A stretch of 64,000 nucleotides of DNA from an uncultured candidate division Zixibacteria bacterium. GTDB taxonomy: Bacteria > Zixibacteria > MSB-5A5 > UBA10806 > 4484-95. A model generated the notes under the pieces. It was not told the origin of the DNA and did no database searches. It was given only the letters and a program-made list of their open reading frames with translations. Below are positions 5,429-32,672 of this stretch, piece after piece; positions within the stretch are counted from its first letter, which is position 1, and every line of letters starts with the position of its first letter. The stretch covers positions 32,001-96,000 of the forward strand of contig CAXXKA010000004.1 in the NCBI GenBank assembly GCA_963668625.2, written 5' to 3'. Both the position numbers and the translations under genes were made by a program.

Positions 5429-7147
5429 ATGCGAACTATGGTTGTTAAAGTTTTTGTGATGATAACCGCCACCTTATTAATATGTAGTTCGGCGCTGGCC
5501 CAGTGGCCGACAGATCCCGATTCGAACATGGTGATCTGCAATCACTCGGGCGAGCAGGCGATACCGAAAGTGGCGCCTACCTCCGATGGCGGCTGCTATA
5601 TCTGCTGGTACGATCATGAGTCGGGCAACTACGATATGTACCTTCAGAGACTAAACGCCTACGGCGAGATTCAATGGACAGAGAACGGCATGCTGGTAAG
5701 CGATAATCCCCAGGCCACCTGGCTGACAGATTACGAGATGACAGTCGACCACGATGATAACGCGATTATAGCGTTCAACGATACCAGGGCCGGCGATGAC
5801 TGGGATATTTACGCTTACAAAATCAGCCCCGAGGGCGAGTTCCTCTGGGGTGAGGACGGCCTGACCGTTTCCGATAACGATGGATTCGAACCCTACCCGC
5901 AGGTGTGTGTCACCACGGGCGGCAATATCGTCATAGCCTGGCAAGAGGAAAGCACGATTCACATACGCAAGTTCGATCCAGACGGTAACGACTACTGGTC
6001 CTCGCCCTCCGTAATCGATATTACCAGCGAGTACGGTATGTCTATCCCCCGTCTGGCGCCGGCCGAGAATGATGGAGTTATCCTTCAAGCGCTGGATAAA
6101 ACCGGCCCGAATTACTGGGATACCAACTATATCTACCTGTATAAATTCTCCGAATATGGCGAGGCGATATGGGGCGAAGGTTTATTAGTCAGTGATGCCG
6201 GCGGTATCGGTATTCAGATGTTCCCCGAGGTGTGTAGTGACGGTCTGGGCGGCGCGATCTCGTTCTGGTACGATTCGCGTATATCCAATCAGCTTCACGC
6301 CTACGCCGAGCATTTCAACGCTGATGGTGATCCGCTCTGGGCGGAGGATGGTTTGATGCTTTCATCCAATCCCTCCCAGTTCCAGATGAATCCCTCGGTG
6401 ACTTATTTCCCCGAATCGGGCAATGTGATGGCGTTCTACAAAACCACCAACTCGTTACAATCGCTAAGCGGTATCGGCGGCCAGTTGATCAGCGGATTCG
6501 GTGAACGTCTGTGGGGTGATAGCGGCGTCGATATCCTTCCCCTGGCAGATAAAGGCCGTTATTCCACTAATGTGTTCACTTTCGAAAACGATGCTATAGT
6601 GGTGTGTTTCGACTCTCCCGACGGCGATGTGGTCAATAACTATGTCGATGCCATGCGTATCAACGTGGATGGCGAGCATGTATGGGATGAGTCCCCGTTG
6701 ATGATAAGCTCTTTAAGCAGCGACAAAGTTCACCTATTTGCGGCCATGACAGTCAACAACCAGGTATTAGCATCCTGGGAGGATGGCAGAAACGGTAACA
6801 CTGATATCTACTTGCAGAATGTAAATCCCGATGGTACCCTGGGGCAGTATATAACCGGTATTGAGGAAGCGGTTAATCTTCCCCAAAACACCGGACTCAA
6901 TATGGCTTACCCGAATCCGTTTAACGCCTCTACCACGATTAGTTATAGCCTCGAATATGCTGCGAATGTCAGCCTGGAGATTTACGACATACTCGGCAGA
7001 AAAGTGGAAACTCTGGTAAACGGCAATCAACAGGCCGGGAATTACCAGTTAAACTGGAAAGCTGATCAAATCAGTACCGGTATTTATTTCGCCAGGATGG
7101 TAACCGATGGTCAGTCCTCGATGAAGAAACTGGTGTTATTGAAATAG
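5429..7147 (+). CDS. Secreted repeat protein with C-terminal FlgD/T9SS-type sorting domain
   Basis: RBS aggag; signal peptide ending ALA-Q; repeated DxGG..I.W.D.R / G...W.EDG units; C-terminal YPNPFNAST...KLVLLK. Confidence 0.85.
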   Translation: MRTMVVKVFVMITATLLICSSALAQWPTDPDSNMVICNHSGEQAIPKVAPTSDGGCYICWYDHESGNYDMYLQRLNAYGEIQWTENGMLVSDNPQATWLTDYEMTVDHDDNAIIAFNDTRAGDDWDIYAYKISPEGEFLWGEDGLTVSDNDGFEPYPQVCVTTGGNIVIAWQEESTIHIRKFDPDGNDYWSSPSVIDITSEYGMSIPRLAPAENDGVILQALDKTGPNYWDTNYIYLYKFSEYGEAIWGEGLLVSDAGGIGIQMFPEVCSDGLGGAISFWYDSRISNQLHAYAEHFNADGDPLWAEDGLMLSSNPSQFQMNPSVTYFPESGNVMAFYKTTNSLQSLSGIGGQLISGFGERLWGDSGVDILPLADKGRYSTNVFTFENDAIVVCFDSPDGDVVNNYVDAMRINVDGEHVWDESPLMISSLSSDKVHLFAAMTVNNQVLASWEDGRNGNTDIYLQNVNPDGTLGQYITGIEEAVNLPQNTGLNMAYPNPFNASTTISYSLEYAANVSLEIYDILGRKVETLVNGNQQAGNYQLNWKADQISTGIYFARMVTDGQSSMKKLVLLK

Positions 7148-7972: not shown

Positions 7973-8335
7973 TCAAGCGTTAAACAAACGGCTGGCATCA
8001 ACATAGATTTGATATTTATCGATTTTGCCGTTATTGATTAAGAAATAGTTCGTAAACGGAACGCTTAAATTCGAGCCATCCAATCTAGTATATATAACAT
8101 TACCCCGGCAGAATACATGTTCATCCTTTTCAATAATCATATGCAGCTTATGATTGAGAGATTTTATCGCGCTAAAGAAACCCGCCACGTACTCCCTGAT
8201 CGGCTCGACTCCCTTTACCTCCTCGGCGTTGCCGAATATGAACGAGGAGTCATCAGTTAAATATGTGACGAACTTATCGGCATCTTTGCTATCTATAGCC
8301 TCGAATAATTGTTTTAACATTTCCACGTTGTTCAT
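7973..8335 (-). CDS. SnoaL-like / NTF2-fold protein
   Basis: LFEAIDSKDADKF...FGNAEEVKG...GKIDKYQIYVD pattern; AGGAG 5 nt upstream. Confidence 0.85.
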   Translation of the reverse strand: MNNVEMLKQLFEAIDSKDADKFVTYLTDDSSFIFGNAEEVKGVEPIREYVAGFFSAIKSLNHKLHMIIEKDEHVFCRGNVIYTRLDGSNLSVPFTNYFLINNGKIDKYQIYVDASRLFNA

Positions 8336-8372
8336 TCGTACTCCTATGATAAAAGTCTACTCCAAATTTCAG

Positions 8373-9386
8373 TTATCTGTTTGCTAACACAAAGTTAGGG
8401 AAATCTTCAAACACCCAATTATTTTTCAAGGTGTCATAGATTATTCCCAGTAATTTTCTGGCTGTGGCAATGATAGCCTTACCGCTGCCACGACGGTTTT
8501 TTATACGATTGTAATATTTACTCAAGTAATGGTTATATCGTATGGCAACAAGCGTACACTGCACCAGTGTAGTCCGACCAATCTTAGAACCACGCTTGGT
8601 AATCCGACCATGATGCTGAATCTCGTTTGAATTGGAAACTCGCGGCACTACGCCAAAATATGAGGCCAATTTATCTTTGTCCGAAAAATCAGCAACATCA
8701 CCAATTACCGAAAGCAACACTGTAGCTGATTTGCTGCCGATTCCTTTGATGCTGGTCAGGTTCTTATGCCCGTTCAACTTGCGACCCTGATCCTCTATCT
8801 GTTTGTCCAGCTTTTTTATCCCCTCATTCAAACTGCGAATCTGATCAACCAATACCTCAAGCTCAACAGAAACAACCTCATCAAAATTCATCTTTAGAAC
8901 CCGCTCCAAACTCTTGTTGCTGGAGTAGGCCTCCTTTTTACTCTTGATACCATGATGATTGAGTATGTTGTGTATTTTATTCTTCAAAGCTGTACGTAAC
9001 TTGACCAGCTTGTCCCGTGTCCCAACAAGTGAACTGATCTGCGCTTTATCTTTCGTCTTTAATCGGGCTTTCGGCAACATGTCTTTGCTCATAAAATAGG
9101 CTAAGTTCCTGGCATCGTTTTCATCCGTCTTACTGACTGATGATTTGATTATCTCAAATTTGTTCGGATCGACGACAACAACTCGCTTGACCAAATGCGA
9201 TATCTCATCAACGAAATAACGAGTGTTGCCAGTGGCCTCAACCGCTACACAATCCGTCTTTTTTAATCCTCGTTTAAATTCCTTTAGATCCTTTAGCCGA
9301 TACTCCTTGATCCTCTCCCGACCACCGGCTGTCAGGCAACACACGGTCAAACTGTTTGTGTGAAGGTCTACTCCTAAGTACCTCAT
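8373..9386 (-). CDS. IS110-family DEDD recombinase
   Basis: GVDLH, VEATG, KTDENDA and SYFGVVPRVSNS motifs; start taken at MRYLGVDLH. Confidence 0.95.
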   Translation of the reverse strand: MRYLGVDLHTNSLTVCCLTAGGRERIKEYRLKDLKEFKRGLKKTDCVAVEATGNTRYFVDEISHLVKRVVVVDPNKFEIIKSSVSKTDENDARNLAYFMSKDMLPKARLKTKDKAQISSLVGTRDKLVKLRTALKNKIHNILNHHGIKSKKEAYSSNKSLERVLKMNFDEVVSVELEVLVDQIRSLNEGIKKLDKQIEDQGRKLNGHKNLTSIKGIGSKSATVLLSVIGDVADFSDKDKLASYFGVVPRVSNSNEIQHHGRITKRGSKIGRTTLVQCTLVAIRYNHYLSKYYNRIKNRRGSGKAIIATARKLLGIIYDTLKNNWVFEDFPNFVLANR

Positions 9387-9389
9387 CTT

Positions 9390-9605
9390 CTTGCTCCATT
9401 CTATGGTTATCACTGGAGCAGACTCTCTGTCGGCGCCTACCAAACTCCTATTCAAGGTCTTTGCCTTATGGTGGCAATTCGGTTACAGGTCTGATTAATC
9501 TCCTTTACGAGGTCTGGCCTCAAGCATTCAGTTCAGCCTATAACCTATCCGCTCCAGTTAGAAATTCATTACCGAAGCTCTAACACCAACAGAATAGATT
9601 AGCAA
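9390..9605 (-). ncRNA. Putative bridge/seek RNA region of IS110 #1
   Basis: About 220-nt non-coding end upstream of the recombinase; two AGACCT-led segments ending in AAAGGAG (target-like) and ATAGGAG (donor-like); boundaries approximate. Confidence 0.6.
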
Positions 9606-9801
9606 GATGCTTTTATCGTACCATCTCCTTTTTTATCAGATAATTATAATTGATTTAACCAGGATTGAGTTCCCGAAATGGTATATCTCTTTGGTTGAAT
9701 ATTATCAATAAAAAACTATTCTATAATGTAACACCGGCGGCTATAATCCGTATTTCAAAAGGTACGAAAATAGTTATCATGGTTTGGGAAAGGAAATTAT
9801 T

Positions 9802-11004
9802 ATGAAAAAACAACTGTTGTTGGCTATCAGTCTTATTGCAATCGCTATTAGTGTTTTGCAAGCGCAGGGAGTAAATGATGATACCCAACTAAAACCTTAT
9901 ATCGATGCATTGAAAACCGAGGGTAAAAACCCTTTCGAGTTCGTGCTCAAGAAATTCGATATTTACGACCTGCTTATTTTCGATGATGCTCTACACACGG
10001 CAGTTGAACCGTTCGATTTCTATCAGGAGCTTATCAAGAAACCGGCGTTCCATAATAAAGTTAAAAATATTTTTGTCGAGGTAATTCCTATCAGCAAACA
10101 GGCCGCTGTCGATGATTACCTCCGGACGGTACCGGAAAATGTCGAACTACTCTACCCCGCTTTCCAGAACGATCTCAACGCCGAGGGTTGGCCGTATAAA
10201 ACCTATTTCGATTTGCTTCACACTATCTACACGGTCAACCAAACATTGCCGGATGATGAGAAACTGAATGTAATAGGTGTCGCCAGCCCCACCTACTGGT
10301 ATGAGATCAAAAACTCGCGTGAATTGAAGCAATTCAGGAAGTCGCTTCGAGCCTTCGACTATATGATGTATATAACAATCGCCGATCAGATGGAGAATTT
10401 CAACAGCGACAAAAAAGCTATATTCCTGACAAATACCCGTCACGCCTACAAGGGTATTAAAACCAGCAGCGGCAACTACTACTGGAATGTCGGGACATTT
10501 CTGAATCAATGGCACCCCGGCAAAACGTACTCGGTGCATTTTCATTCGCTGTATTTGTTTATCGATCGGAACTACCAGATGAAATTTGACCGTATCGCTG
10601 ATGGTATCTGGGATTACGCTTTTAAGACCAACGGTAACGTGCCAATCGCCATACCTCTTAAAAACAACGCCTTCGGCAATGAAAGCTATATTGGAAATCT
10701 TATGCTGAATGTAGCACCCGGCCAAACCATGTATGATGCTTACGATGCCTTGATCTTTTTAGCGCCTGTTGAGACATTACATAAAACCGCAATGGTTGAT
10801 TTTATCTACACAGATGATTTCAAGAAAGAGCTTCAGAGACGGGCTGGTTATTTATATACTGAGGATGAGATAAGTGCCATGCTCAGCAAATACGGTTCGA
10901 AAAACATAGCAGAGCTAATTGATGCCTTTACCGTATATCAAGCGAAGGTACTTATGCCGCAGGCGCAGTCTATCAGCCCTATTGATGCGTGGAAAAATAA
11001 ATAG
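9802..11004 (+). CDS. Secreted hypothetical protein, possibly EreA/ChaN-like fold
   Basis: Signal peptide MKKQLLLA...LQA; DDALH, FVEV, NTRHAY and YDALIFL are reminiscent of the ChaN/EreA superfamily (weak). Confidence 0.6.
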   Translation: MKKQLLLAISLIAIAISVLQAQGVNDDTQLKPYIDALKTEGKNPFEFVLKKFDIYDLLIFDDALHTAVEPFDFYQELIKKPAFHNKVKNIFVEVIPISKQAAVDDYLRTVPENVELLYPAFQNDLNAEGWPYKTYFDLLHTIYTVNQTLPDDEKLNVIGVASPTYWYEIKNSRELKQFRKSLRAFDYMMYITIADQMENFNSDKKAIFLTNTRHAYKGIKTSSGNYYWNVGTFLNQWHPGKTYSVHFHSLYLFIDRNYQMKFDRIADGIWDYAFKTNGNVPIAIPLKNNAFGNESYIGNLMLNVAPGQTMYDAYDALIFLAPVETLHKTAMVDFIYTDDFKKELQRRAGYLYTEDEISAMLSKYGSKNIAELIDAFTVYQAKVLMPQAQSISPIDAWKNK

Positions 11005-31931: not shown

Positions 31932-32672
31932 TTAAATTACTTCTCTTCCCTCGCATAAATTAACCAGACTTGCCAGTGCATATATTTGCGATTTTCGGCC
32001 GCTGCTTTGGCGCACTTTTTTTAATATTCCCGCTTTTTGAAGCGTATTTAGAATCGAGGTCAACATTTGGCGGCTTGGCATTGACGGGATTTCATGATTT
32101 CACTTATTAAAATTATCGGCATATGGAAATATCTATCCAGCAAAGGCACGGCATACTGCGAACGAGTTATTTCCAGAATATCGCTTTTTAGTTCCTGATA
32201 CAATTTCAACATATCTTTAACTTTTTGAGTGTTAATTCTTGCTTGCTTATCTATTGCTCTCAGGAAGAACTCTATCCTCTTTAGCCAGGTATCGCCGCCG
32301 TTAAGCTGACGAAGTGAACCAACGTATTCATCACGGTTATTCTCCAGATACTCAGATAAATAAAATAACGGACGTGAGAGTAGTTGTTTCTCATACAGGA
32401 ACAATGGAAATATAACGCGCCCTATTCGCCCGTTACCATCAAGAAAAGGATGATTGATCTCGGACTGCGCATGTATAATCGCCAATTGAACTAATAAATC
32501 TTTATCATCCGAATGATAGTATTTCTCCCAATTATCCATATATACTTTTATTAAACCGGGATCCGGCGGAACATATTCAGCCTCTTCATCGGTTGGCTTT
32601 ACCTATTAATGGCAATATGGCTTCCCAATCAATACCTTCCAATGGAAGTTCATGTGGAACAGTAGTTTTCAT
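31932..32672 (-). pseudogene. Fic-family protein pseudogene
   Basis: Start MKTTVPHELPLEGIDWEAILPLIGKANR, then an internal deletion/frameshift to EEAEYVPPDP; HPFLDGNGRIGR retained; second frameshift near 32070 before ...SGRKSQIYALASLVNLCEGREVI. Confidence 0.8.

Follow-up and report, generated by a model that had tools for sequence, protein, structure and literature searches.

The 64,000-nucleotide stretch of DNA analyzed here (the window; positions 32,001 to 96,000 of contig CAXXKA010000004.1, assembly GCA_963668625.2, from an uncultured candidate division Zixibacteria bacterium) carries an insertion sequence of the IS110 family on its minus strand. The element lies between a gene for a SnoaL-like protein and what reads as the Shine-Dalgarno sequence of that gene (Table 1). 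The sole long open reading frame (ORF) between the two junctions encodes a recombinase with the domain order of IS110-type enzymes, a DEDD RuvC-like domain followed by a Tnp domain, and both of its Pfam matches exceed the curated cut-offs (PF02371, E 5.4e-22; PF01548, E 1.4e-13). Upstream of this gene, as in other IS110-type elements, is a non-coding region that extends for 238 nucleotides (nt) from the left end to the ATG at 9386. The evidence presented below leads us to conclude that this is very probably a bridge-RNA-guided insertion sequence whose target guide spells a Shine-Dalgarno sequence.

Read on the minus strand, the left junction is AAAAAAGGAG/ATGGTACGAT, within the region ..CTGATAAAAAAGGAG/ATGGTACGATAAAAGC.. 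at 9639-9609, and the right junction is CATAGGAG/TACGA-ATG, within ..AGACTTTTATCATAGGAG/TACGAATGAACAAC.. at 8358-8327, with the slash marking the boundary. Because AGGAG is common to both junctions, the boundary of the element may shift by up to 5 nt, and the exact crossover within the common AGGAG is not readable from the sequence. The flanks contain no direct repeat beyond AGGAG, consistent with the lack of target-site duplication that characterizes IS110-type elements. Classical terminal inverted repeats are absent; the ends instead carry subterminal inverted repeats of ~9 nt (9609-9620 and 8345-8354), (A)CGATAAAAG at the left end versus CTTTTATCAT at the right end, which covary across the lineage, for example CATGAATAGT with ACTATTCATG. 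The left halves of target and donor, AAAGGAG and ATAGGAG, differ by a single base.

Excising the element in silico yields AAAAAAGGAG-TACGA-ATG in front of the SnoaL-like ORF. An earlier note on this DNA, made from the letters alone, had proposed that excision rebuilds the ribosome-binding site of a SnoaL gene, that the right end of the element restores AGGAG at the same 5-nt spacing and that a circle junction would read TAGACT-17-TACGAT. Our reading of the junctions, the Pfam assignment of the downstream gene and the joining of the two ends bear out all three proposals. The note had also matched one heptamer in the non-coding region to the target flank and another to the donor end, and both matches are exact to the base.

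Table 1 Features of the insertion sequence and its target site (window coordinates)
Feature	Position	Strand	Remark
IS110-family element, 1.28 kb	8341..9624	-	One copy of the shared GGAG counted
Left target half AAAGGAG, native Shine-Dalgarno sequence of the SnoaL-like gene, now left junction	9625..9631	-	Plus strand CTCCTTT
Right target half, spacer TACGA and ATG of the SnoaL-like gene	8333..8340	-	ATG at 8335-8333
Right (donor) end ATAGGAG	8341..8347	-	Plus strand CTCCTAT; restores AGGAG at the original 5-nt spacing from the ATG
Downstream host gene, SnoaL-like, 120 amino acids	7973..8335	-	Pfam SnoaL_2, E 2.4e-14
Recombinase (transposase) gene, 337 amino acids counted from ATG	8373..9386	-	Pfam DEDD_Tnp_IS110 (PF01548) and Transposase_20 (PF02371)
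Bridge-RNA core, predicted	9415..9555	-	Fold and covariation
Closing helix, predicted	9548-9555 with 9415-9422	-	
Target arm, predicted	Outer stem 9534-9545 with 9481-9493; hairpin 9508-9522	-	
Donor arm, predicted	Hairpin 9453-9468	-	
Putative target guide AAAGGAG with 2-nt extension AU	9498..9506	-	Heptamer 9500-9506; extension 9498-9499 matches the first bases of the left end
Putative donor guide AUAGGAG	9445..9451	-	Identical to the right end ATAGGAG
Candidate right-donor guide GCCA	9472..9475	-	Complementary to left-end positions +5 to +2
-10-like hexamer TACGAT, in left end	9615..9620	-	[TCG]A[TC]G[ATC][ATC] in 47 distinct junctions
-35-like hexamer TAGACT, in right end	8354..8359	-	17 nt from the -10-like hexamer once the ends are joined

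To place the element among its relatives, we scanned one genome per species and retained the best 80 of 160 relatives, which share 52–64% amino-acid identity and come from 55 assemblies. By their record titles, these loci belong to Acidobacteriota, Omnitrophota, Spirochaetota, Alphaproteobacteria, Nitrospira, Planctomycetota, Verrucomicrobia, Desulfobacterota-type groups and others. Together with the window element they make up 81 loci, in 70 of which regular expressions recover both junction types; the left junction alone was found in one locus and the right junction alone in seven, and the remaining loci are broken or cut by contig ends.

The non-coding region upstream of the recombinase gene is predicted to encode a conserved structured RNA. 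In single-sequence folding, the 248 nt preceding the gene fold better than all 200 shuffled versions (z -4.3). For 45 non-redundant homologues, RNAalifold returned four helices, namely a closing helix, the outer stem and the inner hairpin of a target arm and the inner hairpin of a donor arm, to which we added a 5-pair outer stem of the donor arm. In the resulting structure of 35 pairs in six helices, 95.7% of cells are paired and 22 of the 35 pairs show compensatory changes. None of 500 shuffles reached any of the five measures that we applied, and sliding the structure by 1–3 columns left 31–49% paired. The fold has two internal loops, as expected for a bridge RNA, and both heptamers are unpaired in it, each on the 3' strand of one loop. 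RNAalifold had paired two Gs of the donor heptamer with two upstream bases; we took this pairing for an artefact and omitted it. A search of positions 8000-10000 on both strands with the covariance models of Rfam gave no match at E values up to 1.

The closing helix has counterparts elsewhere in the element. Its 5' strand (9548-9557) is repeated at the right end (8354-8364, minus strand) as (G)GAGTAGA(CA), a match of up to 12 nt. This copy is the longest word common to the right end and the non-coding region in 22 of 52 distinct elements (L016-L087), and it is weaker in the window element (TTGGAGTAGACT versus CTGGAGCGGATA). On the other strand of the helix, GCUCCA (9415-9420, the 3' strand together with the adjoining base) is complementary to a UGGAGC that includes the ribosome-binding site of the recombinase gene (9393-9398). 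By eye, homologues such as L016 and L024 have a similar complementarity, which may link recombinase translation to the folding state of the bridge RNA.

Each heptamer covaries with its own DNA partner across the 62 loci with both junctions on which the following counts are based. The target heptamer is identical to the left flank at position -7 in 52 of the 62 loci (A 38, T 7, C 4, G 3), at -6 in 60 and at -5 in all 62 (A 57, C 4, T 1), and for each of these three positions none of 2000 permutations was as good. The donor heptamer is identical to the right end at position -5 in 61 loci (A 47, G 14), reading AUGGGAG where the right end is CATGGGAG. As a control, we exchanged the partners at the discriminating position: the target heptamer then agrees with the right end in only 1 of 62 loci, and the donor heptamer agrees with the left flank in 2. 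The four GGAG positions are invariant and carry no covariation information. Each of the two loops thus varies in step with one DNA partner, either the target flank or the donor ends, as expected for a bridge RNA.

The lineage also contains what is, judging from guide and flank sequences, a natural retargeting. In three loci (L071, L073 and L076) the guide and the left flank both read CACGGAG, and a fourth (L083) belongs with them by its flank. This subgroup, from two acidobacterial assemblies, sits in arrays of CACGGAG-like repeats with no start codon; its left flank reads ..CACCACGGAG and its right flanks read ACACGGAG.. and GCACGGAGGTCACGGAG.., with junctions near locus positions 1270 and 2550-2690. 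Other variants occur singly or in pairs: AATGGAG in both guide and flank of L084, TTAGGAG in L057, AGAGGAG in L033 and L047, and TGAGGAG in L034.

The target loop also matches the element itself. Two bases past the target heptamer, the RNA has the same base as the left end has at its second position (right-donor position RD+2) in 62 of 62 loci (T 54, C 8), so that the target-loop strand spells out the left junction, AAAGGAG followed by AU or AC. A short guide for the right donor half may lie at 9472-9475. Column 9474 pairs with left-end position RD+4 in all 62 loci (41 Watson-Crick, 21 G-U) and forms G-C where RD+4 is C; by eye, column 9472 is G in five of seven aligned elements with a left end of AC, and A where the left end is AT. 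We also considered another register for this guide, ACCAU at 9468-9472 pairing with ATGGT, and found by eye that it does not covary. For the right target half, an ACU on the 5' strand of the target loop, which could pair with AG and the following T, proved not to be conserved in homologues.

The source genome, a 4.3-Mb assembly, contains 11 copies of the element at 99–100% identity. Their flank pairs are mutually unrelated and therefore represent 11 different sites, yet each left junction carries AAGGAG (AAAGGAG in 9 copies, TAAGGAG in 2) and each right end reads ..CATAGGAG. An ATG follows 5, 6 or 7 nt past the right end in 11 of 11 copies; nine of these ATGs open ORFs of at least 116 amino acids, and two open ORFs of 34 and 39 amino acids. 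The recombinase gene is co-oriented with the downstream gene in every copy, and the base directly after GGAG is T in 9 of the 11. Unitigs from public sequencing runs of the same organism collapse at 8341-9630/9631 with ~20x the depth of the flanks, and a wetland metagenome contains the same element with another flank, GGAG-TTGAT-ATG.

The same placement recurs across the lineage. Right flanks of 40 nt or more are available for 73 loci, and in 56 of them a start codon 4–11 nt past the right end opens a frame of at least 50 codons or one running to the end of the locus; this start codon is ATG in 54. [AG]GGAG forms the end of the element in 62 of 62 loci with both junctions.

The two ends of the element carry hexamers that would form a promoter on circularization (Table 1). 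With the spacer held at 17 nt, TTGACA is matched at four or more of six positions in 28 of 47 distinct junctions; nine further junctions (score 1) read AGACAA in this register and, by eye, TAGACA one base further out, with an 18-nt spacer. Most of the 47 junctions thus have a T[AT]GAC[AT]-like -35 hexamer at 17–18 nt, and one spirochaete element reads TTGACA-17-TATGAT. A simple scan of the minus strand of the element found no terminator-like site, which is weak evidence, and a TATAAT lies ~12 nt upstream of the target AAAAAAGGAG. The promoter-like hexamers of the joined ends, the lack of a terminator-like site and the upstream TATAAT fit read-through from a host promoter by way of bridge RNA, recombinase and the rebuilt ribosome-binding site into the host gene. 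As the earlier note suggested, the element may rewire transcription of the downstream gene. In two copies (L009 and L011; G000 C10 and C6), GC-rich hairpins (CCCCCCAATATTGATTGGGGGG; GCCGCCGGTATTATTACCGGCGGC) lie 10–25 nt upstream of the target ribosome-binding site, so these target genes may have little room for a promoter of their own.

The earlier note had read the element as guided to a Shine-Dalgarno sequence, a reading that turned on whether other insertions also lie at ribosome-binding sites and on whether the heptamers are free of stems and covary with their targets. The gene-start position of all 11 genome copies and of 56 of 73 homologous loci, together with unpaired heptamers that track the flanks (52, 60 and 62 of 62 loci for the target; 61 of 62 for the donor), largely supports this interpretation. 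A 7-nt guide alone does not account for the restriction to gene starts.

Several other results weigh against guidance to Shine-Dalgarno sequences as we propose it. The 62 loci are not independent, because several genomes contribute seven to nine copies each; among the best 80, one Robiginitomaculum genome has nine, one acidobacterial genome eight and one spirochaete genome seven. In mutual-information and best-column scans, no RNA column tracked right-target positions RT+1 to RT+6, so that no right-target guide was found, and the bases after the donor guide agree with RT+1 and RT+2 in 25 and 21 of 62 loci (permutation p 0.17 and 0.31). Neither a circle junction nor an empty site was found in the contigs of four public runs. 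The -10-like hexamer is weak, matching TATAAT at 3–5 of six positions. Finally, 17 of the 73 homologous loci have no clear downstream ORF. Four of these belong to the retargeted group, ten have a start codon that opens 3–46 codons, and in L059 and L072 the regular expression probably picked the wrong end. The last, L029, has the final 16 nt of the right end (ACAAACATCATAGGAG) tandemly doubled before the downstream ATG, a duplication that recombination between donor and target halves of nearly identical sequence may have left behind.

The restriction to gene starts raises the alternative that a further determinant, and not the guide alone, confines insertion to functional gene starts. In the genome, AAGGAG occurs 1574 times, and 280 of these hexamers are followed by an ATG 5–7 nt later. 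Among unoccupied [AT]AAGGAG sites, 169 of 851 (20%) lie ahead of an ATG with 30 or more open codons; when ORFs of at least 150 amino acids are excluded, a crude mask, the share is 126 of 356 (35%). The presence of all 11 copies at starts is far above the prediction from the heptamer alone, and with only ~20% of free sites at starts, the excess calls for either selection or an additional determinant. Such a determinant might consist in recognition of the spacer or the start codon, in DNA near promoters that melts easily or in coupling to transcription or translation, and the preference for T as the first base after GGAG would suit it. AT-rich flanks were rejected as the cause, as filtering for them leaves only 22–29% of sites at starts and so gives no enrichment. 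However, the spacing to the ATG varies, over 5–7 nt in the genome and 4–11 nt in the clade, which puts the ATG out of reach of a guide of fixed register; RT+1 to RT+6 have no covarying RNA column; and the retargeted CACGGAG group inserts away from start codons. The mask, moreover, removes only ORFs of at least 150 amino acids. If the true intergenic sites are mostly ribosome-binding sites, purifying selection may suffice. On balance we consider a further determinant less likely than not.

A second alternative is that the left-junction AAGGAG is part of the element and not of the target, in which case the Shine-Dalgarno-like ends would simply be brought along without any targeting of ribosome-binding sites. 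The invariance of this hexamer in all 11 copies is what such an element would produce, and the empty state of these 11 loci was not seen in the contigs of the public runs. We therefore looked for empty sites in relatives. A DNA search of 30 relatives with a 3.4-kb region returned two short matches to parts of the element in one genome (G006) and no orthologous DNA. Because the DNA of relatives was too diverged, we used protein orthologues as a proxy and searched five relatives free of the insertion sequence for the proteins encoded downstream of two other copies. Orthologues were present in five of five and four of five relatives, and all nine loci have a single uninterrupted Shine-Dalgarno-like motif 5–7 nt before the ATG (AAGGAG in seven, AAAGGGAG in one and ATAGGAG in one). 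These loci fit an empty site of the form AAGGAG-N5-7-ATG and argue against ownership of the left AAGGAG by the element. In addition, position -7 varies between copies (A 9, T 2) and the flank outside it is unrelated; elements with another guide have another left flank (CACGGAG, AATGGAG, TTAGGAG); and the established mode of the family, in the available text of the IS621 work, is conservative exchange at a shared core (PMC11208160). Ownership by the element is thus very improbable.

That the heptamers are ordinary ribosome-binding sites or chance matches, with the protein alone selecting the site, is the least credible alternative: they do resemble Shine-Dalgarno sequences, and the invariant GGAG leaves four of seven positions uninformative, but neither is followed by a start codon at Shine-Dalgarno spacing, both occupy internal loops of a conserved fold, 60–120 nt ahead of the ATG of the recombinase gene, none of 2000 permutations follows the flanks as well as their three variable positions do, and each fits its own partner and not the other's.

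On the basis of the observed copies, junctions, RNA structure, guide–flank covariation and clade-wide site preference, we propose the following course of insertion under RNA guidance. The 5' non-coding region (9415-9555, minus strand) would encode a two-arm bridge RNA. Its target arm would expose AAAGGAG, which equals the top strand of the left target half and would pair with the bottom strand, and its donor arm would expose AUAGGAG, which equals the right end of the element. By homology to IS621, the DEDD/serine recombinase would join the circularized element (..CATAGGAG to ATGGTACGAT..) with chromosomal ..AAAGGAG-N5-7-ATG, with strand exchange within the shared GGAG. The outcome would be strand-specific, placing the element between ribosome-binding site and start codon and always reading with the gene. 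Because the AGGAG end of the element replaces the ribosome-binding site at the same spacing, the gene would keep its translation signals. The junction promoter would drive the RNA from the circular form, whereas integrated copies and the downstream gene would be transcribed by read-through from a host promoter, and selection against insertions within genes would leave only real gene starts occupied.

Several of these features parallel IS621, as described in the available text of two papers. There, the left guides have the sequence of the top strand and base-pair with the bottom strand, the right guides base-pair with the top strand, and joining of the ends creates a sigma-70-like promoter (Durrant 2024, PMC11208160; Hiraizumi 2024, PMC11208158); within each loop a stem is followed by the left guide, a stem-loop and the right guide, and 2-nt handshake guides come after the right guides (PMC11208158). 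The present element likewise combines a recombinase with DEDD and Tnp domains, a 5' non-coding RNA whose two internal loops match the target and the joined ends, respectively, a left guide with the sequence of the top strand, a core common to the two junctions without target duplication and a promoter-like hexamer pair split between the two ends. The 2-nt extension beside the target guide, which matches the other DNA, resembles a handshake guide. The recombinase, however, is distant from the solved IS621 and ISCro4 transposases (E ~1e-12, mainly over the Tnp domain), and no right-target guide was found in the 62 loci. The left halves of target and donor differ at one base only, a further contrast with IS621. 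The target here is a ribosome-binding site, and that of IS621 is a repetitive extragenic palindromic (REP) element. In each loop of IS621, as described, the left guide precedes the stem-loop, whereas here the 7-nt guides and the extension lie 3' of it and the short candidate right-donor guide lies 5'. Named by recombinase direction, the guide order would thus be the mirror image of that in IS621; with the DNA reversed, the architecture would be the same and the extension would correspond to a handshake guide.

Insertion at translation-initiation signals by an IS110-family element is already known from IS900 of Mycobacterium avium subsp. paratuberculosis, which, in the available text of one paper, has the target motif CATGNNNNNNTCTCCTT, rarely inserts in coding sequence and carries a hed ORF on the strand opposite to the transposase (PMC8141618). 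On that description, each of the two elements enters the gap that separates a ribosome-binding site from the start codon and seldom inserts within genes. In the direction of the transposase, the IS900 motif is the reverse complement of a Shine-Dalgarno-N6-ATG arrangement, so the IS900 transposase faces away from the target gene, whereas here the two are co-oriented. The title of a 1997 paper by Doran describes IS900 as targeting translation-initiation signals. IS901, IS902 and IS1110 are grouped with IS900. No Mycobacterium record is present among the best 80 of 160 loci, and our literature search found no bridge-RNA explanation of the IS900 target.

Guidance by short RNA matches is also a feature of IS1111-type elements, in which, in the available text of that work, a seekRNA directs target choice through short matches to the flank and the element ends, and subterminal inverted repeats are a mark of the type (Siddiquee 2024, PMC11187229). 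The present lineage shares the short-match guidance and has subterminal inverted repeats, which covary across the clade. As in the IS110 type, its non-coding region precedes the recombinase gene; that of the IS1111 type lies downstream of the transposase gene. A recent preprint, in its available text, reports 86 bridge-RNA covariance models with structures deviating from IS621 (10.64898/2026.10.21.760802). Our literature search found no link between a bridge-RNA or seekRNA guide and a ribosome-binding-site target; supplementary target tables (Durrant 2024; 10.64898/2026.10.21.760802), which lay outside this search, may include the lineage. A protein search returned 4768 relatives at E values of at most 1e-30, named only 'IS110 family transposase' or 'transposase'; no ISfinder name emerged from plasmid or protein-name searches, which yielded nothing beyond the generic 'IS110 family transposase'.

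What is new here, and well supported, is a multi-phylum bridge-RNA lineage whose members insert in sense orientation at the Shine-Dalgarno sequence and restore it. Taken together, the results suggest a broader picture, which we offer tentatively and regard as somewhat less than probable as a whole. In it, the near-universal Shine-Dalgarno heptamer serves the lineage as a portable landing site, recognized as a half-site through essentially a single long guide, without a right-target guide, and read by guides that mirror those of IS621. Insertion would be nearly neutral through replacement of the ribosome-binding site, and the element would be a hitch-hiker in host 5' leaders, with bridge RNA, recombinase and host gene on one transcript from a host promoter. 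Because the tail of the 16S ribosomal RNA fixes the target, the same guide would work in any host, which would account for its conservation across phyla.

These findings link the older observation on IS900 and translation-initiation signals to a bridge-RNA mechanism, by way of natural swaps of guide and target. Sites of this target class number in the thousands in nearly all bacterial genomes and are kept by the ribosome itself. The findings suggest how an insertion sequence could spread across phyla with an unchanged guide and could insert without shutting genes off. How much pairing a bridge recombinase requires is a question on which the apparent absence of a right-target guide and the mirror-image guide order both bear. 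Lying co-oriented ahead of the start codon, the element amounts to a natural, promoter-trap-like insertion, whose effect on host expression is measurable.

Elsewhere in the window, an ORF of 572 amino acids is present on the plus strand at 5429-7147. Its C-terminal end resembles a type IX secretion sorting domain.

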